NCBI GenBank assembly: GCA_036278915.1
Contig: DASUKB010000004.1
Location: 9,441 to 73,440 of the forward strand
DNA length: 64,000 nucleotides
Direction of reading: 5' to 3'
DNA from: Patescibacteria group bacterium
GTDB lineage: Bacteria; Patescibacteriota; Doudnabacteria; UBA920; O2-02-FULL-48-8
The stretch's first letter is position 1. Each line of letters opens with the position of its first letter. The position numbers and the translations under genes were made by a program. Below the pieces are notes generated by a model. It made no database searches. It saw only the letters and a list, made by a program, of their open reading frames with translations, and was not told where the DNA came from. Positions 23,790 to 58,502 of this stretch are shown piece by piece.

Positions 23790-25808
23790 TTATAAAATTG
23801 GGGTTCCTGGCATAATTACATCCATCTCCGCTTGCGGCAAAGAAACAATAGAACTGAAGCTATATTTGCGTTCAGCAAACGCCGCTGCAGAAAGCGCCCG
23901 CTTAGTGCTGTTTTCTATCACATATACCGTAGGGTCGCTGACAGATTTAACCAAGGTTCCATCGAGCGGCGACAGCCAGAAACTATCTTGCGGTCTGGGC
24001 ACGTGTGAAAATTCATCAGTTGTAACAGAAATAACTTTTGCGAACGACAACTTGCGCTGGGTAAAGACATAATAAGTCACGGGTCTGGCGACCTGATTGC
24101 TCATGACATACACCGTGGGATTGCCTTTGATAAGCACAAGTGTCCCGTCAGGCGGCCAGTACCAGTCCGCCAATGGGATCGAGGCCAAATCCGACTCTGA
24201 CATAATTTTAACGTTGGCAAAACTGAAATTGCGCGACACAAAAACTAAATACGTAAGCGGCCTGCGTACGCCGTTATCGATGTAGTAGACGGTTGGATCT
24301 GTTTCGCTTTTAATAAGCGTGCCGGTATTGGGCGCCACCGGATCGCCCAGAGTATAATTATCCAATTGGCCCGATTGTTCTATAAGAATTTGCGCGCCAG
24401 GATATTTTTGGTTGAGCACAAATTGCGATACATAATGTTTAATTCCGCCGGAGACGAGATAAATATTATTGGTAGCGGTTTCGCGGACCAAGGTATTATT
24501 TAAAATTGGCTGCGGCTGCAAGGCGGACAGCGCATCAATTCGCCCCTTGCCTAGAAAGCCATTACAGCTAGATCCCAGACAGTTGTCCTGATTCAGGGCA
24601 TCAATATTATCTGCGGTGTTGAGGATCAGATCGCGAATTTGCGCGTTGGTCATGGACGGGTTTTCGGATTTTATAAGCGCGGCCACACCGGCCACCACGG
24701 GCGTTGCCAGAGATGTTCCGGAGGCGTATATAAGCACGTTATCGGATGGATCAGACGGAAAAAACGCGGTCGTCAAAATTTCTTGGCCTGGAGCTGTGAT
24801 ATCCACGCAGTTGATGCCGAAATTGGAGAAATCCGATTTGCGATCGGAAATGTCGGACGCGGCCACGCCCAAAACCATATTCTGGCCATTATCTTCGCAC
24901 ACCGGGTACACCGGATTCTGGTCGAGGTTCAGACCCTGATCGGCCTTGTCATTCCCTGCGGCCGCTATTACGAGACTGCCCTTGCTGTATGCGTAAGACA
25001 CTGCGTTGGCCAGATCAGAACTGTTGGGGAATCCTGAGCCGCCCAAAGATAAATTTATAACATCAGCACCGTGATCAGCGGCCCACATAATCCCCTCGGC
25101 AATTACAGAAATGTCCCCTTTGCCTTCGGAGTTAAGCACTTTAACCGGCATCATTGACACAACCCAATTAATACCCGAGATTCCTTTTTGGTTATTTGGG
25201 ATAGCCCCAATAACTCCGGCCACAGCCGTGCCATGGCCATTGTCGTCCGAGTCACTGTTGGCTGGTATGATTTCTCCGGTAGTCATGTCAAACCCCGCCA
25301 CAACTCGGCCGTCATTGAGATCGAGGTGGCTTGAGTGGATGCCTGTGTCAACTATAGCCACAACGACACTTGCCGAACCGTGCGTGTAGTTCCACGCTTC
25401 GGGCGCGCGAATTTTTGGCAGGTACCACTGCTTGTCCTGCTGGCTTGGATCAGTCGTGAAAAAAGGATCATTGGTCGTGACCACTTGCGACACACTCAAT
25501 TGCGCAACTGAAACTGCGCTATCGTTCTCTGCGAAGTTAATACGAAAATCAGAACCAAGTAAGACTTGTTCATCGCTTGTGGTATCCGCGGTATACACGT
25601 TCGCCAACTGGTTTCCCGTATAAAGCTTTTGGAAATTTTGTAAATTATATTGATGCGCGAGAGCAGAAAGATCAACGCCAGGTTTTATTCCCAAAATTAT
25701 TTGGACTCTGCTTTCTCCCGAAGCCTTACTTATTGCGGGGCTAAACAAAAAAGCGGCTAGACAGACGCAAGCCAAAATTTTTATAAAATTATTTTTTAGT
25801 TTAAGCAT
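23790..25808 (-). CDS. subtilisin-like serine protease (S8) with C-terminal ~65-aa repeats
   Basis: Catalytic triad motifs AIVDTGI (Asp), NGHGTAVAGVIGA (His), GTSLATPVVAGVAAL (Ser); repeats GTLIKSETDPTVYYIDNGVRRPLTY... x3. Confidence 0.8.
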   Translation of the reverse strand: MLKLKNNFIKILACVCLAAFLFSPAISKASGESRVQIILGIKPGVDLSALAHQYNLQNFQKLYTGNQLANVYTADTTSDEQVLLGSDFRINFAENDSAVSVAQLSVSQVVTTNDPFFTTDPSQQDKQWYLPKIRAPEAWNYTHGSASVVVAIVDTGIHSSHLDLNDGRVVAGFDMTTGEIIPANSDSDDNGHGTAVAGVIGAIPNNQKGISGINWVVSMMPVKVLNSEGKGDISVIAEGIMWAADHGADVINLSLGGSGFPNSSDLANAVSYAYSKGSLVIAAAGNDKADQGLNLDQNPVYPVCEDNGQNMVLGVAASDISDRKSDFSNFGINCVDITAPGQEILTTAFFPSDPSDNVLIYASGTSLATPVVAGVAALIKSENPSMTNAQIRDLILNTADNIDALNQDNCLGSSCNGFLGKGRIDALSALQPQPILNNTLVRETATNNIYLVSGGIKHYVSQFVLNQKYPGAQILIEQSGQLDNYTLGDPVAPNTGTLIKSETDPTVYYIDNGVRRPLTYLVFVSRNFSFANVKIMSESDLASIPLADWYWPPDGTLVLIKGNPTVYVMSNQVARPVTYYVFTQRKLSFAKVISVTTDEFSHVPRPQDSFWLSPLDGTLVKSVSDPTVYVIENSTKRALSAAAFAERKYSFSSIVSLPQAEMDVIMPGTPIL

Positions 25809-27816: not shown

Positions 27817-27964
27817 ATTGATAAAATAAAAAACCGGCGCAAGCGGTTTGGTTTTTGTTTTTGGATTAATTAAATTCTAAGCAACAAAAAAAATTTGCGC
27901 AAGGCAAATCAAGGGACAAACGGTGGATAAACCCTTACAACAAGAATTGTACGCGGGCAAATAT

Positions 27965-27992
27965 AAAAGATCAGGCAAAAGCCTGATCTTTT
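27965..27992. terminator. bidirectional intrinsic terminator (12-bp perfect stem) separating the surface-protein operon from the galE operon
   Basis: aaaagatcaggc-aaaa-gcctgatctttt. Confidence 0.6.
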
Positions 27993-28014
27993 ATAGCTAG
28001 ATTTTTTCTAACTT

Positions 28015-28662
28015 CTAATTATTCGGCTTGCCGAGCTTATAGGCCACACGGAACAAAAACACGCCGAGAGTGATGAATGCCGCCAAACTTACGCTGATCC
28101 AGCCCGGGATGCCCGTTTTCGGGGCCGTAAAGGAAGTGCCGGAGCCCAGAGTGCCTGGGCGGTTTGCCGGTTGCGTGGACGGATTGACGTCGCCAAGATT
28201 GGTAATGACTTGGTTGTTGTACGAAACTTTAGCCACGCGCTGGGCAGAGTCGGTTGGCAATGGATCCTTGACGCGCACCGTGAACTGCTTTTGAATTGAA
28301 CCGTTTGCTGGAATATCCAAAGGCGTCCAGATGAGCGAATTGTTGCCAGAATTGTAATTGGCACCCTGCGCGTCTATAAGCGTGGCGACATTGGTGACAT
28401 CGCCAATGCCGACCTCAATTACAAATCCGCTGATAACTTTATCCGTTGGATTTTGCGCCGTAAGCGTATAGATAAGCGAATCGTTTGGGTGCGCCGTGAT
28501 TGTGGTGCCATCCGCGTTTTGAGTCTGATCCTGCACGCTTACCGAGAGGTTTGGATTAGTATTTGAACTGTTGGATTTGTGGTTATGGTCATATATGAGC
28601 CATGCTCCGACAGCCACTATCACTATTAGAACTATAATGCCTATGATTCTATTTCTGGTCAC
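28015..28662 (-). CDS. cell-surface protein with N-terminal signal anchor and C-terminal APKTG + TM + basic tail (sortase-type sorting signal variant)
   Basis: C-terminus ...FTAPKTGIPGWISVSLAAFITLGVFLFRVAYKLGKPNN. Confidence 0.5.
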   Translation of the reverse strand: MTRNRIIGIIVLIVIVAVGAWLIYDHNHKSNSSNTNPNLSVSVQDQTQNADGTTITAHPNDSLIYTLTAQNPTDKVISGFVIEVGIGDVTNVATLIDAQGANYNSGNNSLIWTPLDIPANGSIQKQFTVRVKDPLPTDSAQRVAKVSYNNQVITNLGDVNPSTQPANRPGTLGSGTSFTAPKTGIPGWISVSLAAFITLGVFLFRVAYKLGKPNN

Positions 28663-28675
28663 GGTATTCCTTTCT

Positions 28676-31585
28676 TTAGGATTTAATCAATCCAGTTAAA
28701 CGCACGAGCGACAATATTCTGCCGTTACGGTAACCCGCAAAGCCCAACAGTGTCAAGCTCGCAAGGATAATGCTTAAAGTCGCCGTGTTGCCGGTAGGAG
28801 GCGCCACAAACGGAGTCATGCAAGAGACTGAAACATTCACAGTGTTGCCGAATGTGTTGCTCATGGTGCAGTCCGTGGTGCCGGCTGGAATCGGATTTTT
28901 TACCTGCACGCGGAACGCGCGGTTGACCGTGGCTCCGGCGGCTATGTCCGTGGCTGGATAAGTCAGAACATTGCCGTTGAGCGTAGCTCCGTCAATATCA
29001 ATGAGGTTGGAAAGCTTAACCACGTCCGAGACGTCATCCGTAAACACATAATTGGCCATGGTGGCATTGCCGGTGTTGCTTGCGGTCAGGGTATACGTGA
29101 TCATATCACCTGCTTTGGCAGTCACAGTGGTTGCATCTTTGTTCTGGGTGTCGTTCCAAGCTTTCTTGGAAAGGCTCAAGTTGGGGTTGCCGGACGGACA
29201 GTTTTGAGTGGTGACAATCGCAGTATCGCTTACCTGGCCTGCGTTATCCGCCACAGCAGTGGCGCGATTTGTCAAAGTTTGGCCGCAATTGGCGTTATTC
29301 ATAACTGCCTGGAAACTTGTGGTTACGGACTGGCCGGGATTTAAGGAAGCAATTTTTAAGTACGGCGAGACTGTTGGATTGCCCGAGGAGGACAAGCTGA
29401 CAGACAAATTATTGTTGTAATTTATGCCGTTTGGCAAGACATCTGTGATAACAACGTTTTGCGCCACAGCTGAACCGGTATTGGTAACGACTAAACGATA
29501 AACCAATTGGTCGCCGAAGGAGCTGGCAACGGATTTTTGGAAACCAGTGCCGGTTGTGGAATCGGAAACCGTCTTCACGATGCTCAAGCTCGTGTTGGTG
29601 GAGAGATTGCAAAGAACTGTAACCTTGGCTGAATCAGAGACTTTGGAGGCATTATCCGCAACAGCTGTCGATGTGTTGGTTGCGGAATTATCACAGCCGC
29701 CCGGTGCCACATCAAATGTAATCGTGTCCAACTGACCTGCTTGAAGGAGTCCAAGTTGAATGTTGGGTAAAGTGTTTGAACTTGCCTGTCCATTGATCTG
29801 GAAATTTCCGGCAAACGGCAGGGTTCCTGGCAAGACATCTGTGACAACAACGTTTTTGGCAACGCTTTCGCCTGTGTTGGATACGACAATCTTAAACGAT
29901 ACGCCCGTGCCAGCATTTATAGTCAGACTGTCGGCATAATTTTTGCCGCCGTCTTTGCTTACAGTTTTGCTGATAGTCAGCACTGGGGGCTTCGGTGGAG
30001 GCGGACAGACTGGTCCTGTGAGTTTGGCTGTGTCAGAAACCGGTCCAACTTCGTTGGATTGGGCGGTTGCCGTGTTGGTCACAGTTGTGGCACAAGTAAT
30101 ACTGTTGACCTTGGCATTGAAGGTAAATGTCTGCGAAGCACCAGGGGCAATTGTACCCATGGCAATGTTGTTCAAATCCGCACTACCCGAATTGGATAAA
30201 CCTGCGGGTAAAACATCTTTAGCAACCACGTGAGTGGCATCTCCTGTGCCAGTGTTTGACACAACAAGTTTGAATGAAACACTATCTCCTGCTTTAGCCG
30301 GGACTGATTCCACAAAACCTGATCCTGTGGTGATATTGCTTACAGTTTTGCTGATAGTCAGCACTGGGGGCTTCGGTGGAGGGGGCGTATTGGTTTTGAC
30401 TACGAGCTGGTAAGTTACGAAGTGTAAAAACTGAAAACAACCGCGCATATCGCCGATAGAAACACCTGAACCTGTGATGCCGTCAGGCAAGTTGGCCTGG
30501 AACGCACCGGTGTTGTCGTAAAGTTTGGTGGAACCGGAAACATACTGCAAGACTTGATTGGCACCCAAAGACACGTTGACATTGCCGCCTTTTTGCGCGG
30601 AAGTTATCGTGTCGGCATTGTCCGCCCAGGCTGTAGCAGTGATTGCACCGGACCCGTTTGGAACACTTGATTTCACTTGCACGTTGTGTGCGATGTTTTC
30701 CGGGAAATCCAAAACGCCGTTGTGCACATAAAGTTCAACGGTTATGGTTTGGCCGTCAGTGGCCGCAACTGTCCCATTGCTGGTGACAAATGCGCCGCCA
30801 GTGGTGGCATTTTTGGCTGCAAGCATATGGTAGTCGGTGCAGGTTGCGCCGGATTCGGAAATCGGCCAGATGTTGAGCATTGGTTTGCCGCGAGGTGGAG
30901 TTGGCAGACAAACATCGCCGCCACCATCGCCTCCGCCTGTGTCTTTGGAAATCAAAGACGCCTCAAGGGTCGTGTCTGAATCCATAATCACAGTGTAGCT
31001 GCGTTCGTAAAAATCAGTCAGGTTTGCGCCAATGTCCGCGGTGTAGGTTCCGCTGTTCAATTTGAAAGTCGCGGATCCGGAACCGTTCGTATTGGCTGAC
31101 TGGCCGTTGGACAGAGAAACTTTTGCATTTGGTATCAAAATATTTTTTGCCGGATCACCGTTGAACACGCGGACATTCAAGGTAAATTGGGCCGGATCTA
31201 CCGCTTTGGCGATAAGCGATGCCTCAAGCGTAGTGTCCGAATCGATAATCACATGGTACGAACGGTCTTGGTAGTCCTTGCCTGAAAGCTGAAGCGTGTA
31301 GCCGTCTTCCGCGACATTAGTAAAGACCACGGTACCGGAACCGTTGGTAGTGGCCTTGGTCAAGTTCGACGGATTGCCGCTTGTATCTGCATGCAGCGTC
31401 ACGTCTACGCCCGAAATTAATTTGTTCTGGGCCGGGTCGCCTTCAAACACTCGCACAGTTAAATTGTGCTTGGACGAGAAATCGGCATGAGTAATAGCCA
31501 CGGCTCCAACCACACAGGCCAAAGCCAAAGCAAGCCCCACAGATCGGGCCACGCCTGTTCTCGTAATTTGCGAAAACTTTTGCAT
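28676..31585 (-). CDS. large surface protein (969 aa) with two N-terminal ~100-aa repeats, 3-4 DUF11-type repeats and C-terminal APPTG + TM + basic tail; true start at Met 31585
   Basis: DUF11-like modules (VVSNTG..A.NVVVTDVLP.GL); duplicated PPPKPPVLTISKTVS linkers; C-terminus FVAPPTGNTATLSIILASLTLLGFAGYRNGR; AGAAAGGAAAG SD before ATG 31585. Confidence 0.6.
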   Translation of the reverse strand: MQKFSQITRTGVARSVGLALALACVVGAVAITHADFSSKHNLTVRVFEGDPAQNKLISGVDVTLHADTSGNPSNLTKATTNGSGTVVFTNVAEDGYTLQLSGKDYQDRSYHVIIDSDTTLEASLIAKAVDPAQFTLNVRVFNGDPAKNILIPNAKVSLSNGQSANTNGSGSATFKLNSGTYTADIGANLTDFYERSYTVIMDSDTTLEASLISKDTGGGDGGGDVCLPTPPRGKPMLNIWPISESGATCTDYHMLAAKNATTGGAFVTSNGTVAATDGQTITVELYVHNGVLDFPENIAHNVQVKSSVPNGSGAITATAWADNADTITSAQKGGNVNVSLGANQVLQYVSGSTKLYDNTGAFQANLPDGITGSGVSIGDMRGCFQFLHFVTYQLVVKTNTPPPPKPPVLTISKTVSNITTGSGFVESVPAKAGDSVSFKLVVSNTGTGDATHVVAKDVLPAGLSNSGSADLNNIAMGTIAPGASQTFTFNAKVNSITCATTVTNTATAQSNEVGPVSDTAKLTGPVCPPPPKPPVLTISKTVSKDGGKNYADSLTINAGTGVSFKIVVSNTGESVAKNVVVTDVLPGTLPFAGNFQINGQASSNTLPNIQLGLLQAGQLDTITFDVAPGGCDNSATNTSTAVADNASKVSDSAKVTVLCNLSTNTSLSIVKTVSDSTTGTGFQKSVASSFGDQLVYRLVVTNTGSAVAQNVVITDVLPNGINYNNNLSVSLSSSGNPTVSPYLKIASLNPGQSVTTSFQAVMNNANCGQTLTNRATAVADNAGQVSDTAIVTTQNCPSGNPNLSLSKKAWNDTQNKDATTVTAKAGDMITYTLTASNTGNATMANYVFTDDVSDVVKLSNLIDIDGATLNGNVLTYPATDIAAGATVNRAFRVQVKNPIPAGTTDCTMSNTFGNTVNVSVSCMTPFVAPPTGNTATLSIILASLTLLGFAGYRNGRILSLVRLTGLIKS

Positions 31586-31737
31586 AACTTTCCTTTCTGA
31601 ATAATTAATTCTATCCGATTTTATTTTGAAATTTTTGAGAATGATCAATCCACCCGCGTTTATGGATGAACTGAATGATTCACAAAAAAAGGTTGGAGGA
31701 GAAAACACGTTTCGTGTTCTCCCCTCCCGATTTGAGA

Positions 31738-32643
31738 TTAGCCACCAGTCGGCCTGGGTGGCGGCGGAATACCCTGCTTCTGGGACTCCGGCGGCGGTTC
31801 GGAACTGTGGTGGTTTTGATCGACTCCAATCACAATTCCGCCGACCACGGCGGCGGCAACTACGGGCCACACCCAGCACGGGGCGCCCCAGGCTCGGCAC
31901 GGCTTGTGCACGGGTACCGGAGGCGGTGGCGGAGTTGGCGGCAGTACGATTTTGACGTTGTTGACTGCCACAGCGATAGGTCCCGGAGCTGGCGGTACAA
32001 CAGTCGGCGCAGGTGCAGGCTGCGCTTTGACCACCACGTCCTTCGGAGGGTTGACCACCATAGGCGGTACGTCTCGGAAACCCGAGACGTTGCGACACCG
32101 TTCGTAGATGATCGGCCGCACTGCTTGTCCGGCGAATGGACCCGAGGTGATCGGAATCGCTTCGTCCAATTCCCAACCAGTGATCGGACCGCTCGTTTTG
32201 TTAACCGGATAGTCCCGGTCGACATACACGGCAGAATTTCCATTAGCATCAGGGTGGCTACCAGAAGCCATCGGGAAGTCGCCGGCCACGCCACCGTTCT
32301 GAATGGTCTTGGGATGGACCTTGCCATCCTGAAACTGGCGCACAACCTGATCCCAGAATTCCTGTGGCAGCGGAGTGAGTATGGATCCGAAATAAGCTCC
32401 AGCCATTCCGCGACGGATCTTATCCTTCGCGGCTTGGTAACTGGCTGCATCCGACAGCACCATGTTGGTGATCTGCGGCTTCTCACTGGGTTCCACTCCG
32501 GTAATCGGCGGAACCATCCTGTCTGGCACCAGCGGATTCACCGCGTAATGGCGCCAAATGAAAGGCTTCTCGGTCTTGTTCTGTGCCTGCGCGGGAAGCG
32601 CAAAGCACAAACACACGGCCACGAACACCACTAATCTCTTCAT
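31738..32643 (-). CDS. GC-rich secreted proline-rich protein with C-terminal TM (start at MKRLVV, Met 32643)
   Basis: Signal peptide MKRLVVFVAVCLCFALPAQAQ; AAAGGAGGGA SD 5 nt before this ATG; PPTPPPPPVPV low-complexity; ~60% GC. Confidence 0.45.
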   Translation of the reverse strand: MKRLVVFVAVCLCFALPAQAQNKTEKPFIWRHYAVNPLVPDRMVPPITGVEPSEKPQITNMVLSDAASYQAAKDKIRRGMAGAYFGSILTPLPQEFWDQVVRQFQDGKVHPKTIQNGGVAGDFPMASGSHPDANGNSAVYVDRDYPVNKTSGPITGWELDEAIPITSGPFAGQAVRPIIYERCRNVSGFRDVPPMVVNPPKDVVVKAQPAPAPTVVPPAPGPIAVAVNNVKIVLPPTPPPPPVPVHKPCRAWGAPCWVWPVVAAAVVGGIVIGVDQNHHSSEPPPESQKQGIPPPPRPTGG

Positions 32644-32758
32644 TAGTCCCTCCTTTAAGGACATGAAAGTCTATCTGAAGTCGCTTGAAAGCAACAGCTA
32701 AGAATACTCTAAATGGCCGCGTTTGTCAAGGCTTAAAACCTGCACTTAACCGTCAAAT

Positions 32759-33892
32759 TTATAGGCTCGAAAGCTCTGCAGACACGACCATGCGGTTTTT
32801 GGCAGTGCCTATGGGCCAGCAGGTGGAAAGGTTAAGTTTGGCCGAGGAATTGTCTATAAATTGCGTCTGGTCATCGGGTGAGAACACGTTTTGGCCAGTC
32901 ACGCGGTAACGGTAGTTATAGACCTTGCCATCCTTGCCGTAGACCGTGATGTAAATGTCGTCGCCTGGTTTGAGATAATTGATTTTGGTAAAAATCGTGG
33001 CAAACGGATCGTGCTTCCAAACGTAGTCGGAAGAATGGCCGGATACGTACATCGTACCGACCTCGCCAGGCAGAGCGGTGCCCGGGTAATGTATCACGCC
33101 GTGTTCCAAGTCGTTATCAAAAGCGGAGGCGTCCGGACTAAATATAAACGGCGCGGAAATATTGAGCTTAGGTATAGACAAAACGCCCGGTTTGGACAAA
33201 TCAAAATTATCCGCATCCGCCGTGGTTATAGCTGATCCTTTGTTGGACGAAACCGCGTAACTTATACGCTCCGAAACCATATTGAGGTTAACGTTTGTCA
33301 AAAGCTTGCTCTGATCTGAAGTTAATCCACCCGCGCCCCAAGGGTTAGTAGAATTCAAGGCCTCCACGCCGTCTGCCGTGCCATCACCGTCGGAATCAGA
33401 AAGGGTTGGGTTGGTACGCAGCATATATTCATCATAGTTTGTAAGCCCGTCGTTGTCGTAATCATTATCAGGCGCCAACAGGTCTTTGTTGGAAACTGAG
33501 TAAAAATATCCACCGATCCACTGATTATAAGCGGTTAAATCCTCGCCCAAAATTTGCTGATCTTGCGGCTTGGCAAAAAATCCTTGCGCCTGCGCGGCAA
33601 GCGATGGAAAATTCATCGTCGAATAAAAAATCAAAAACGAACCGGCAAACACTGCTGGGTAAACTAAAATACTTTTATACGGATGAAATATTCGGCGTAA
33701 AAACGCGAGAAAATTTGTAACTTCTAACCCCTTCTCATTTTTTGGCAGTTCCAAAGGTTTGGCCTCAATCTGCGCGCTTTGTTTAAGCACAAACCCGGTT
33801 GCGTCTGCAGTCACGTCAAAATTCCCGATTTTGAGCAATCGGTAAATCTCGGGCTGGTCTGAATTTGATTGTGGGAGTTCCTGTGGATTCAT
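32759..33892 (-). CDS. sortase-family transpeptidase with N-terminal TM and calcium-binding DxDxDG repeats
   Basis: YVSGHS (His), LNLSTCWP (Cys), NRMVV (Arg) catalytic motifs; DNDYDNDGLTNYDE and DSDGDGTADGVE TSP3-like repeats. Confidence 0.7.
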   Translation of the reverse strand: MNPQELPQSNSDQPEIYRLLKIGNFDVTADATGFVLKQSAQIEAKPLELPKNEKGLEVTNFLAFLRRIFHPYKSILVYPAVFAGSFLIFYSTMNFPSLAAQAQGFFAKPQDQQILGEDLTAYNQWIGGYFYSVSNKDLLAPDNDYDNDGLTNYDEYMLRTNPTLSDSDGDGTADGVEALNSTNPWGAGGLTSDQSKLLTNVNLNMVSERISYAVSSNKGSAITTADADNFDLSKPGVLSIPKLNISAPFIFSPDASAFDNDLEHGVIHYPGTALPGEVGTMYVSGHSSDYVWKHDPFATIFTKINYLKPGDDIYITVYGKDGKVYNYRYRVTGQNVFSPDDQTQFIDNSSAKLNLSTCWPIGTAKNRMVVSAELSSL

Positions 33893-33904: not shown

Positions 33905-33942
33905 TCCAAACTATACTCCTTTTTGGCGAATTTGTCAACCCC
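33905..33942 (-). promoter_or_regulatory. sigma70-like promoter TTGACA-17-TATAGT for the sortase gene (coordinates +/-3)
   Basis: minus strand: TTGACAaattcgccaaaaaggagTATAGTttggagtcaagaaacatATG. Confidence 0.45.
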
Positions 33943-34003: not shown

Positions 34004-35173
34004 ATGCCAAAAATAAAAAACTACTTCATCGCGTCCGAAACCAACGATTATCGCCCATTTATTACATCAACCACGGCATTAGTCCTGTTTGTGGCCATTA
34101 TTTGGTGCTTGAGGCTTATACTTCCAGCATCAATTAGTCTGGCCCAAAGCTACATTGACCCCACGGATGTAGCCAACCGCATAAATACCGAACGGACATC
34201 ACGCAACATCCCCCCGGTCTCCACTAACGATAAACTTGTCACGGCTGCCAATGGCAAGGCAAATGATATGCTCTCCCGAAGCTATTTTTCGCACATTGAC
34301 CCGGATGGCAACTATGTCTGGCCACGCATTGAAGCGGCCGGCTATACTCCCTACTCTATTCTGGGCGAAAACTTGGCTATGGACTTTACTTCTGCCTCCG
34401 ATATGGTCGCGGCCTGGATGAACAGCCCTACCCATCGCGCAAATTTACTCAATGACCAATTTAAAGATCAAGGGGTAGCCCAAGCAAGCGGTCTGTATGA
34501 ACCCGGACACGACACAACTATAGTCGTAAGTCTGTTCGGAGCGCTTGCGCAAACTTCGCACGTCCAGACAGCCCCAACGGGGACCTCCAATCCCCCGGTT
34601 GCGGGAACTTCCACCCCGAGCAATGATACTTCCAAACCCGACCAATTGGCAATTGGTTCGGATGCACAAGTCAGCGTGACCCAAGTTTCCGGCCACAGTT
34701 TGGTTTCCGTAAGTGTTTCCGCCACTGGCAATCCGACATTGGTTACGGCAAGGCTTTTGACGCAATCCATAACTCTCCTGCCGCAGGACGGCCGATTTGC
34801 CGGTACGTTTACATTTAATTTATCCGACCAGTTGAGCGGCCAGCAAATTTCCATTGAAGCGCGAAATGCCGCCGGCGAAAAAACCGAAAGTCAGGTTCAG
34901 CTTTCGCAGATTGAAAGCATTCCTCCTGGTCCGGATGCAGAAAACGCAACGTCCACAACGGCGCCATCTCCCATCCCCGTCTCGCAGGAAGCGCAGGTTA
35001 TGAATATTTTGCGAATTATTTTTGGAATTCTTTCTGTAATCTATCTGGGATTCCTGGTCACCGACTGGATTATCATCCATCGGGCACACGTGGACCGACC
35101 CGGCGCGCACCTGGCCCCACAAATCGCAGTATTCTTCATCCTGGCTTTAGTAAATCTCTTCGTAAAATTCTAG
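34004..35173 (+). CDS. CAP/SCP/PR1-like domain secreted protein with C-terminal TM
   Basis: SYFSHIDPDGNYVWPRIEAAGY...NSPTHRANLL CAP-domain motifs. Confidence 0.6.
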   Translation: MPKIKNYFIASETNDYRPFITSTTALVLFVAIIWCLRLILPASISLAQSYIDPTDVANRINTERTSRNIPPVSTNDKLVTAANGKANDMLSRSYFSHIDPDGNYVWPRIEAAGYTPYSILGENLAMDFTSASDMVAAWMNSPTHRANLLNDQFKDQGVAQASGLYEPGHDTTIVVSLFGALAQTSHVQTAPTGTSNPPVAGTSTPSNDTSKPDQLAIGSDAQVSVTQVSGHSLVSVSVSATGNPTLVTARLLTQSITLLPQDGRFAGTFTFNLSDQLSGQQISIEARNAAGEKTESQVQLSQIESIPPGPDAENATSTTAPSPIPVSQEAQVMNILRIIFGILSVIYLGFLVTDWIIIHRAHVDRPGAHLAPQIAVFFILALVNLFVKF

Positions 35174-35270: not shown

Positions 35271-36719
35271 TTATATATATTCCTTAACCTTTACAAACTC
35301 ATAACCTTGTTTGTTGCTTTGTTGGATAAATCGTTTGATCATTTTTAGAGTCTCATCTGCTGGAAATACTTCACCTTTGTCGTAATCCACTTCTGAGCGT
35401 TGCATTGGCAATCCTGTATCTTCCATAGTGCCAATATGGAAAATTCTTATTCTGCCCTGGCCATTGCTACTTAGGGCTTTTTTTAATAAATTTTCTGCTT
35501 TCAGAGTTTTGCTCGGAGGAATCGCGACCACATCGTAAGGGTTTCCGTGTACTACTTCCAGGCCCATTGCCTGAAATTCCCGCAGACTGTCTACTGTGCC
35601 GTGTACTCCTGCAATCCTGCCTATGGTTGGCTTTTCACCCGTAACTTGTTGGATCAGGTCTGTGGTCTTTTTTACATCACCTAAATCTTTCCTTGGACCG
35701 ACAAATCTTTTGGAGTATTCTTTCAAACCCGCTTTTGGCTTTGCGCCTTCTTGCGCCCATTCGTGAACGCCGACATCATGGCCCTCGTCAATTATCCGTT
35801 TTACGGTGTGTTCCCGCCCTTTGATAAGTGACCCGACCAAAAAAAATGTCGCTTTAGTATTCATTTCTTTGAGAATATCGAGAAGCTTTTCTGTTTCTTC
35901 GTTTGGACCATCATCAAAGGTTAAAGCCATGGCTTTTTTGCCTTCCTGTTCAAGTTTATTTTTATCCATAGACCAATGCACATTTTTACCTTTTATCCAC
36001 TCTGGTGCTGCACTTTTTTCAATTGCCCAATCTATTTTTTCAACCAGATGTGCCAACCCTAAAGCTTTCAAAACTCGCAAACGATCAACACTGGGTTCAA
36101 ACTTTTGCTCGTTACCGCTTATTTGTTTTACTAAATCAGGATTGAACTTGAATAGATTAGTGATTTTGGTGTCAGCAGTTTTCGGCGAATGCAGGACATC
36201 TTCTTTGAATTGCTTGGCATCCAACGCCTGGTTATCTATCCAATCTACGGGCAGATCTTTTCCGTGTTCCCCAAGAAATTTATTGATTCGTTCTTGAATA
36301 TTGAGCAATTGATCTAAAAACTCAACTGAAAACTCTTTTGAATTGAGTTCGTCTAACTTTTTAGCAGTCTTATAAAATTCGTCCTGCTCATATTTTTGGA
36401 CCACATAAAAAGACTTGCCTTCTTTGGAGGCATTCGATGGCGCGCCCTCTACGAACATTGCCTTCGGCAAATAATCGCCAAGTTCTGCTTGTGTGGCTTC
36501 GTAGAACTTTTTGAGTTTAACAAATTGTTCGTGATTTTTTCCGCCGTCGTCAAAGTATTCAGTTACGCCGTATTCCGGACCACTAAATTCTTTTTCTTGT
36601 CCGCCAGGAATTTCGAATGATTTTTCCACGTGGCCAAGTTTATGCAAATCAAATTCCGCCTCTTGCTTCAGAGTCTCTGTCTCGCCATTTATAAATGGTA
36701 TTTGTTTTTCTTTACGCAT
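35271..36719 (-). CDS. polysaccharide deacetylase (CE4/NodB homology domain) with ~230-aa N-terminal domain of unknown function
   Basis: ALTFDDGPNEETEKLLDILKEMNTKATFFLVG...HEWAQEG NodB motifs. Confidence 0.7.
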   Translation of the reverse strand: MRKEKQIPFINGETETLKQEAEFDLHKLGHVEKSFEIPGGQEKEFSGPEYGVTEYFDDGGKNHEQFVKLKKFYEATQAELGDYLPKAMFVEGAPSNASKEGKSFYVVQKYEQDEFYKTAKKLDELNSKEFSVEFLDQLLNIQERINKFLGEHGKDLPVDWIDNQALDAKQFKEDVLHSPKTADTKITNLFKFNPDLVKQISGNEQKFEPSVDRLRVLKALGLAHLVEKIDWAIEKSAAPEWIKGKNVHWSMDKNKLEQEGKKAMALTFDDGPNEETEKLLDILKEMNTKATFFLVGSLIKGREHTVKRIIDEGHDVGVHEWAQEGAKPKAGLKEYSKRFVGPRKDLGDVKKTTDLIQQVTGEKPTIGRIAGVHGTVDSLREFQAMGLEVVHGNPYDVVAIPPSKTLKAENLLKKALSSNGQGRIRIFHIGTMEDTGLPMQRSEVDYDKGEVFPADETLKMIKRFIQQSNKQGYEFVKVKEYI

Positions 36720-58427: not shown

Positions 58428-58502
58428 GGCGCTATCGTCTAGTGGTTAGGACGGCTGGTTCTCATCCAGCAAACTCGGGTTCGATTCCCGGTAGCGCTGC
58501 CA
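58428..58502 (+). tRNA. tRNA-Glu (anticodon CUC), CCA encoded
   Basis: Cloverleaf: acceptor GGCGCUA/UAGCGCU(G-U at 1:72), D-arm GUCU-AGUGGUUA-GGAC, anticodon arm GCUGG-UUCUCAU-CCAGC, T-arm UCGGG-UUCGAUU-CCCGG, discriminator G + CCA. Confidence 0.8.

Follow-up and report, generated by a model that had tools for sequence, protein, structure and literature searches.

Which proteins does a sortase anchor, and by which signal, when the surface proteins encoded beside it do not end in LPxTG? The question is raised by a locus of a Patescibacteria group bacterium (Doudnabacteria; assembly GCA_036278915.1, contig DASUKB010000004.1), contained in a 64-kb stretch of DNA that was analysed as a whole, and is indicated here as the window. 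Sortases are common in Patescibacteria, the bacteria of the Candidate Phyla Radiation (CPR). At the locus, the minus strand carries the genes for the sortase, for a protein of 308 amino acids (aa), for one of 969 aa and for one of 215 aa, in this 5' to 3' order; the last two, called here the large and the small protein, are the candidate substrates. The four genes and the two putative sorting signals are the following:

32759..33892 (-): sortase, 377 aa; 249 homologues detected, overwhelmingly labelled Candidatus Doudnabacteria
31738..32664 (-): 308-aa accessory membrane protein, called in the database from 32643
28676..31585 (-): large candidate sortase substrate, 969 aa, start ATG at 31585
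28015..28662 (-): small candidate sortase substrate, 215 aa, GTG start
28679..28810 (-): putative sorting signal of the large protein, FVAPPTG (28790-28810), followed by NTATLSIILASLTLLGFAGY and by a tail beginning with RNGR
28018..28131 (-): putative sorting signal of the small protein, FTAPKTG (28111-28131), followed by IPGWISVSLAAFITLGVFLF and by the tail RVAYKLGKPNN

The C-terminal tails of the large and the small protein are both tripartite: a pentapeptide is followed by about 20 hydrophobic residues and by a basic (Arg/Lys) tail. In peptide form, the signals read GTPFVAPPTGNTA and SFTAPKTGIPG. When the window was scanned in six frames for xPx[TSA]G ahead of a hydrophobic C-terminus, the only real proteins found were these two. 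The sortase and its two candidate substrates had been described in an earlier note on this DNA: their coordinates, all on the minus strand, are confirmed, and so are the two C-termini, TAPKTG and VAPPTG, each followed by a transmembrane (TM) helix and a basic tail, which are not of the LPxTG type. The note had further proposed that enzyme and substrates form a dedicated pair with an altered recognition motif. Such a pairing is supported by the evidence reported below, according to which the enzyme is probably a housekeeping-type sortase, cleaving between Thr and Gly and attaching adhesins made of CLIPPER domains to the cell wall.

What carries this reading is how well the variant motif is conserved. 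The small protein was compared with 35 homologues, the lowest identity being 42%: in all of them [AS]Px[TS]G is found just ahead of the hydrophobic helix, with Ala at the first position in 32 cases, Ser in three and Leu in none, and the linker before the motif is variable. For the sortase, 396 relatives are found among GTDB species representatives, and the loci of the best 80 of these 396 were taken, corresponding to 79 assemblies. Together with loci collected earlier and with the window they make up 86 loci, which were scanned for a C-terminal helix and basic tail behind xPx[TSA][GASN]. The scan identifies 69 tails of the form [AS]Px[TS]G (61 APxTG, 5 SPxTG and 3 APxSG), and three FIAPKTG tails are added when the hydrophobicity thresholds are relaxed. 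The lone LPxTG match (LPVTG, in locus L061) was rejected as a sorting signal, being a C-terminal motif of the SEDS/FtsW type. All genuine tails are located downstream of the sortase and on its strand, even at loci where the sortase is 28–35% identical to the query; in more than 55 loci, the [AS]PxTG proteins immediately follow the sortase, with the same orientation. The related loci, about 1.5 Mb in all, gave no other candidate substrate.

The composition of the tails extends the motif. Among 99 unique tails, the first position is occupied by Ala in 90, by Ser in 9 and by Leu in none, while position -2, two residues ahead of that Ala or Ser and not a selection criterion, is Phe in 49 and Tyr in 45 (94 out of 99). 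Pro, Thr/Ser and Gly are invariant and Phe/Tyr is 95% conserved, amid highly variable linkers and next to sortases sharing 28–70% identity. The full signal would be [FY]-x-[AS]-P-x-[TS]-G, the second x being mostly Lys. In three more distant relatives (L001, L003 and L005, two of them on long contigs, 964 and 797 kb), the large proteins end in VAPPTG, TSPKTG and VAPPTG, the small ones in KAPETG, KAPVTG and KAPTTG.

As an outside control, the C-terminal module of the large protein, together with its signal (28679-29197, minus strand), was used in an exhaustive HMMER search, which returned 3250 representatives. In the best 150 of these 3250 modules, the signal is APxTG in 41 cases, 39 of them with Phe or Tyr at -2, LPxTG in 19, none with Phe or Tyr at -2, and LAxTG-like in 15. 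A single domain family bears, therefore, three sorting dialects, of which APxTG is a distinct group: the motif follows lineage and sortase, not the domain. The dedicated pairing proposed in the earlier note is thus supported by more than 55 loci, by 99 tails free of Leu at the first position and by the use, in outside homologues, of LPxTG or LAxTG lacking the aromatic residue; the APxTG motif given there is correct as a core, but too short, as the extended form is [FY]x[AS]PxTG. The single sortase of that note holds only for the window, where a search with the family hidden Markov model found no second one, and for the fetched related loci, each featuring one sortase. As the same pairing of sortase and tail recurs in dozens of related genomes, it looks like a genuine, undescribed variant of protein anchoring.

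Two further observations concern the collected loci. In L007, L009 and L012, which are close relatives, three substrates are found behind one sortase, with graded motifs: those of L007 are FIAPKTG, FVSPKTG and YVSPNSG, and the small protein is there the one with SPxSG. Sortase loci of Patescibacteria type are also filed under metagenome-assembled genomes of Binatia, Acidobacteriaceae, Verrucomicrobiia and Micavibrio (L014, L016, L021, L075); three of them are short contigs (3.7–11.8 kb), probably mis-binned, and L075, the one under Micavibrio, measures 389 kb.

The enzyme itself is composed of the following parts:

33677..33892 (-): N-terminal segment, residues 1-72, predicted to be cytoplasmic, with the motif (S)EI(H/Y)RLLK(L/I)G
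33608..33676 (-): single TM helix, residues 73-95, the sole strongly hydrophobic 19-residue window; a helix at 73-93 in the AlphaFold2 (AF2) model
33362..33469 (-): two TSP3-like calcium-binding repeats, DNDYDNDGLTNYDE ... DSDGDGTADGVE
32762..33205 (-): catalytic domain, residues 230-377, with His286 at 33035-33037, Cys358 at 32819-32821 and Arg367 at 32792-32794

The 377-aa protein is a sortase by several measures. It scores 74.5 bits with the Pfam Sortase model PF04203 (cutoff 26.6) and 44.6 bits with TIGR01076 (cutoff 39.35). The AF2 model of its catalytic domain, with a predicted local distance difference test score (pLDDT) of about 80, has the eight-stranded beta-barrel fold of sortases: Foldseek assigns probability 1.00 to its match with over 100 sortase chains. 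The GHS, TC and R motifs, already indicated in the earlier note, correspond to residues 285-287 (GHS), 356-358 (STC) and 367 (Arg): His286, Cys358 and Arg367 are in register with solved class C sortases, and are invariant in 25 homologues. The outcome that, according to the note, would have refuted the pairing, a sortase classification failing for want of an alignment of Cys, His and Arg, did not occur.

The class of the enzyme is less clear-cut. The best Foldseek matches are class C sortases (E 1e-11; phmmer E about 1e-7; identity 22–30%), and none of the NCBIfam class models (A-F, GN) reaches its own cutoff: bits and cutoff are 62.5 and 140 for SrtD, 58.2 and 165 for class D, 50.3 and 160 for class C, 44.5 and 160 for class E, 25.1 and 166 for class F, 25.2 and 158 for GN, classes A and B not being among the matches listed. 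Membership of class C was rejected, because of the score below cutoff and of the absence of both lid and C-terminal TM helix: the DP[FWY] lid is present ahead of beta1 in only one of 25 family members, the only DPF of the window sortase lies past the catalytic His, and the protein terminates 10 residues past Arg367. NCBI records do not agree on a name for the homologues: some have 'class D', some 'class E', others simply sortase.

The predicted topology is type II, with a single TM helix, the N-terminus inside and the catalytic domain outside. Basic residues precede the helix and, further upstream, E15, I16 and L20 (EIxRLLK) are nearly invariant in the 25 homologues. Of the calcium-binding DxDxDG repeats mentioned in the earlier note, the two stretches are found (DNDYDNDG at 142, DSDGDG at 166), and nine of their residues (D144, D146, D148, G149, D166, S167, G171, D174, G175) are invariant in the family; in this protein, however, the Pfam TSP3_bac model scores 19.1 bits, below its cutoff of 25, while PF18884 is a precomputed match on many homologues. 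The N-terminal half of the sortase is modelled by AF2 with low confidence. Neither an extracellular TSP3 stalk nor a cytoplasmic N-terminus of about 70 aa is found in characterised sortases.

The large protein is composed of a signal peptide, two CarboxypepD_reg-like domains, a domain of about 170 aa without family, four modules of CLIPPER/CLIPPER_2 type and the sorting signal. The DUF11 repeats noticed earlier correspond to four Pfam stretches (PF01345, now CLIPPER; 112.1 bits, cutoff 24.6, E 2.4e-32); TIGR01451 scores 100.8 bits (cutoff 24), and DUF7507, DUF7619 and CarboxypepD_reg are also matched. At the sequence level, a K...D...N pattern is present in modules D1-D3, possibly in D4, and paired cysteines in D1-D3. 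A phmmer search against PDB sequences gave no match at E up to 1. The duplicated linkers that had been noticed are two copies of PPPKPPVLTISKTVS, at residues 402 and 529, and are encoded by a 50-nt direct repeat (29955-30004 and 30336-30385, 98% identity, 381 nt spacing); its presence within otherwise diverged CLIPPER repeats suggests a recent duplication or gene conversion. A longer open reading frame (28676..32176, TTG start) was rejected, since the ATG at 31585 yields a signal peptide, and the protein that starts there is identical to database protein P0160.

The small protein is paralogous to D4, the final module of the large one, signal included (BLASTP 32% identity, E 6e-22, to residues 795-953 of the latter), and finds no match in Pfam. 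Its AF2 model (pLDDT 82) features an N-terminal TM helix, one CLIPPER-like beta-sandwich and a C-terminal helix; Foldseek returns weak, generic beta-sandwich matches (E 5e-4 or worse), CLIPPER structure 9IFR included, which do not discriminate between pilin, CLIPPER and carbohydrate-binding module. At its residues 38-45, the small protein is devoid of the first-strand Lys that each of the four large-protein modules carries, while Asn150 is invariant and Lys125 nearly invariant in the family.

The 308-aa accessory protein features a signal peptide, an ectodomain, a Pro-rich linker, a C-terminal TM helix and a Pro-rich tail, with no sorting motif. Pfam and NCBIfam models give no match; a homologue search, where proline-rich stretches swamped the word index, returned only the protein itself and one weak match, and jackhmmer, run across the fetched loci, found homologues in 8 close loci only. 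The architecture is more widespread: in about 30 loci a protein with signal peptide, ectodomain, Gly/Ala-rich TM helix and short Pro/Gly-rich tail is encoded right after the sortase. The sequence of the gene in this position diverges too fast for sequence searches, while its architecture is kept, for example in L003 (12105-13382), L016, L017, L026, L050, L054 and L057; the tail often reads P-x-K-[TSN]-G-[SG]-P-G.

Most distant loci feature one large [FY]xAPxTG protein, 900–2350 aa long, encoded right behind the sortase or one gene further downstream, and no small protein. Sortase and large protein make up the conserved core; the 308-aa gene and the small protein are limited to closer relatives.

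Neighbouring genes and signals are listed here; the promoter-like site and the hairpins derive from a consensus scan only:

34004..35173 (+): CAP/SCP-domain membrane protein (Pfam CAP, 1.7e-16), divergent from the sortase
33910..33938 (-): promoter-like site 5' of the sortase, TTGACA-17-TATAGT, 11/12
31695..31727 (-): terminator-like hairpin, 15 pairs followed by a T run, in the gap between the accessory and the large gene
27962..27995 (.): terminator-like palindromic hairpin, 15 pairs, just past the small substrate gene
35271..36719 (-): 482-aa polysaccharide deacetylase-domain protein, between the CAP gene and rhamnose-pathway genes
23790..25808 (-): S8 subtilase, 672 aa; mycosin-like by NCBIfam, below cutoff

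The two hairpins bracket the genes for the large and the small protein, which suggests that this pair is transcribed as a unit separate from sortase and accessory gene. The two genes are separated by 13 nt in the window, and overlap in L001 and L003. The order CAP (divergent), sortase, protein of 330–425 aa, large protein, small protein of about 210 aa, epimerase, family 2 glycosyltransferase (GT2), S8 peptidase is the same in L001, L003 and L005, where rhamnose-pathway genes are located upstream as well. The CAP/SCP protein features a TM helix at the N-terminus, a region rich in Ser and Thr, and helices at the C-terminus; it keeps position and orientation in these three loci. The deacetylase-domain gene, in contrast, has no counterpart at that position in any of them; it is an insertion specific to this lineage, the region being syntenic apart from it. 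The S8 subtilase, a conserved downstream neighbour, carries a C-terminal repeat of about 60 aa (…PTVYxIxNGxxRPL…) in three copies, and is duplicated in L036, L059, L066, L068, L079 and L084. The locus is surrounded by genes for glycan synthesis: rmlABCD-like, epimerase, GT2, flippase and deacetylase. When peptidoglycan-synthesis genes were sought in the window, as a clue to the acceptor, only glycan and polysaccharide genes, an alanyl-tRNA synthetase and a Ctp protease turned up; Rfam and tRNA scans of the window showed nothing relevant, with one tRNA-Glu at 58428.

How the system would work can be outlined from these elements. The membrane sortase would read the C-terminal [F/Y]-x-[A/S]-P-x-T-G of exported proteins, held in the membrane by the hydrophobic helix and the basic tail that follow the signal. 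Cys358 would cut between Thr and Gly, giving a thioacyl intermediate, and the Thr carboxyl would then be passed to an amine of a peptidoglycan precursor. The outcome would be the covalent display of a long fibrillar adhesin, made of CLIPPER domains putatively stabilised by isopeptides, plus, in this clade, of its short one-domain paralogue. In the recognition step, we infer that Ala/Ser, together with the upstream aromatic residue, stands in for the contact made by Leu in LPxTG.

Some observations weigh against wall anchoring by this route. TIGR01167, PF00746 and the other Pfam and NCBIfam sorting-signal models do not match the two tails, even at E up to 10: the result is consistent with a variant signal, and lends it no positive support. 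In addition, the adjacency of sortase and substrate is not universal: six loci (L036, L059, L066, L068, L079, L084), featuring a distant sortase, an accessory-type gene, a GT2 and two S8 peptidases downstream, show no [AS]PxTG protein within 10 kb, and the substrates of these sortases must be encoded elsewhere or be absent. Finally, the N-terminal helix of the small protein shows no clear signal-peptidase site; the protein may be membrane-tethered, so that, before sortase action, both its ends may lie in the membrane.

Part of these data would fit a different task for the enzyme: a polymerase, like class C pilus sortases, linking the large adhesin, through its Thr, to a Lys of the small paralogue, with the latter as a wall-anchored base. 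Pilus-specific class C sortases are the nearest structures and sequences; predicted CnaA-like isopeptide domains are present in the substrates, as in pilins (PMC12617251); the genes for the large and the small protein are tightly coupled, by the 13-nt gap or by overlap; and the small protein, while devoid of the first-strand Lys, keeps Lys125 and Asn150. Yet the YPK/YPN pilin motif and the E-box were sought in both substrates and neither is present, the enzyme lacks both the lid and the C-terminal TM helix of class C, whose model (cutoff 160 bits) gives it 50, and the small protein is missing from most distant loci having sortase and large substrate. Even the structural preference is narrow: in Foldseek E-value, class C differs from classes D, A and E by no more than about two orders of magnitude. 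A fibre of this kind is, on balance, unlikely. A bolder version postulates a separate, Patescibacteria-specific class of sortases, marked by the N-terminal domain, the TSP3 stalk and the seven-residue signal, which would join the large adhesin to the small paralogue, with the accessory protein as assembly partner, in a two-protein covalent fibre with which these bacteria, of episymbiont type, would hold on to hosts; it is put forward with little confidence.

It may also be asked whether the tails are sorting signals at all. If the C-terminal helices were plain membrane anchors, [AS]PxTG would be a structural element at the junction of stalk and membrane, and the sortase would act on unlinked substrates. 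The failure of curated LPXTG-anchor models on the tails and the related sortase loci without such proteins nearby are in line with this. It is made very improbable by the invariance of Pro, Thr/Ser and Gly and the near-constant Phe/Tyr, standing out between highly variable linkers over a wide range of sortase divergence, by a layout that is exactly the tripartite architecture of sorting signals, by the presence of LPxTG or LAxTG at the same place in related modules of other phyla, and by the absence of any other candidate substrate from the related loci. Cleavage of the signal might, on the other hand, be followed by transfer to an acceptor other than peptidoglycan, such as a wall glycopolymer or a lipid, or by simple release of the proteins. 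Here the location of the locus amid glycan-synthesis genes and the poorly known envelope chemistry of Patescibacteria would be favourable; envelope genes, however, generally cluster, and the neighbourhood may reflect that alone. We know of no sortase with a glycan acceptor, and regard this outcome as quite unlikely too. Attachment of the adhesins to the wall by a housekeeping-type sortase is the simplest of these readings, and the probable one.

The closest known signals are those of C. difficile SrtB, which cleaves SPKTG, PPKTG, SPSTG and SPQTG between T and G, while LPETG is not cleaved (PMC4155245). As in these (S/P)PxTG substrates, P-x-T-G is kept and Leu is replaced in the tails of the Patescibacterial loci, and SPKTG itself is found in L003, L007 and L009. 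SrtB, however, is a class B enzyme from Firmicutes, with neither TSP3 repeats nor a long cytoplasmic N-terminus; the first-position residues reported for its substrates do not include Ala, and no conserved aromatic residue is found two positions upstream. Class C and D sortases provide the best matches to the catalytic domain, and their class models top the partial NCBIfam hits, though with 50–62 bits against cutoffs of 140–165, and without lid motif and C-terminal TM helix in the window enzyme; their signals are LPxTG or LPxTA, while [FY]x[AS]PxTG is found in the window substrates, devoid of pilin motifs. The class E sortases of Actinobacteria are housekeeping enzymes with an Ala-bearing variant motif, LAxTG, and some homologues of the window sortase are labelled 'class E sortase'; in LAxTG, though, Ala replaces Pro and Leu is kept, while in the window signal Pro is kept and Leu replaced, and with the class E model the window sortase attains 44.5 bits (cutoff 160).

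APxTG is accepted by the engineered S. aureus SrtA variants F40, A1-22 and cW11 (PMC8248031), lab-evolved beta6-beta7 loop mutants of class A with reduced activity. The core APxTG is common to their signal and to that of the window, and the window sortase would be a natural counterpart of these variants. Within CPR, Méheust et al. (2019, PMC6744442) have reported a sortase family, fam000526, from over half of the genomes, and the window enzyme, as a candidate member, very probably belongs to it; substrates and recognition motif are not described in the accessible portion of that account (PMC6744442). DUF11 has been renamed CLIPPER and shown to have a CnaA-like fold with a Lys-Asn isopeptide, which makes it resistant to heat and proteases; such domains build isopeptide-stabilised stalks (PMC12617251). 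The large substrate resembles the CLIPPER fibrillar adhesins in its four CLIPPER/CLIPPER_2-type repeats, with the K...D...N pattern and paired cysteines, known here from sequence alone; the characterised CLIPPER 9IFR belongs to a Gram-negative adhesin with an OmpA-like anchor, while the anchor of the large substrate is a sortase signal. A recent paper on a CPR pilus deals with a donor-strand-exchange system, not with a sortase.

In the open-access literature, natural APxTG, APKTG or APTTG signals were sought and none was found, the only related cases being the engineered SrtA variants and SPKTG of C. difficile; none of the open-access CPR papers listed mentions LPXTG, and the search gave no description of CPR sortase substrates or of their motif. 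To our knowledge, acceptance of APxTG has been obtained so far only in SrtA, by directed evolution, as was done for histone H3. The class of mechanism is therefore familiar, while recognition signal, enzyme clade and add-on domains appear, within that literature, not to have been described, and the A–F classification of sortases leaves the window enzyme uncovered.

Since LPXTG models miss them, the sortase substrates of CPR bacteria are effectively invisible to annotation. The combination of [FY]x[AS]PxTG, TM helix and basic tail would permit a genome-wide prediction of covalently displayed surface proteins. If true, a natural APxTG-specific enzyme with an upstream aromatic determinant would provide an orthogonal ligation tool beside LPxTG, LAxTG and NPQTN sortases. 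The invariant TSP3 repeats, together with the conserved cytoplasmic N-terminus, hint at a regulation not seen in characterised sortases. For these ultra-small bacteria, covalently displayed proteins are obvious candidates for attachment to the host, and the signal points to CLIPPER-repeat proteins as the adhesins that may serve it.

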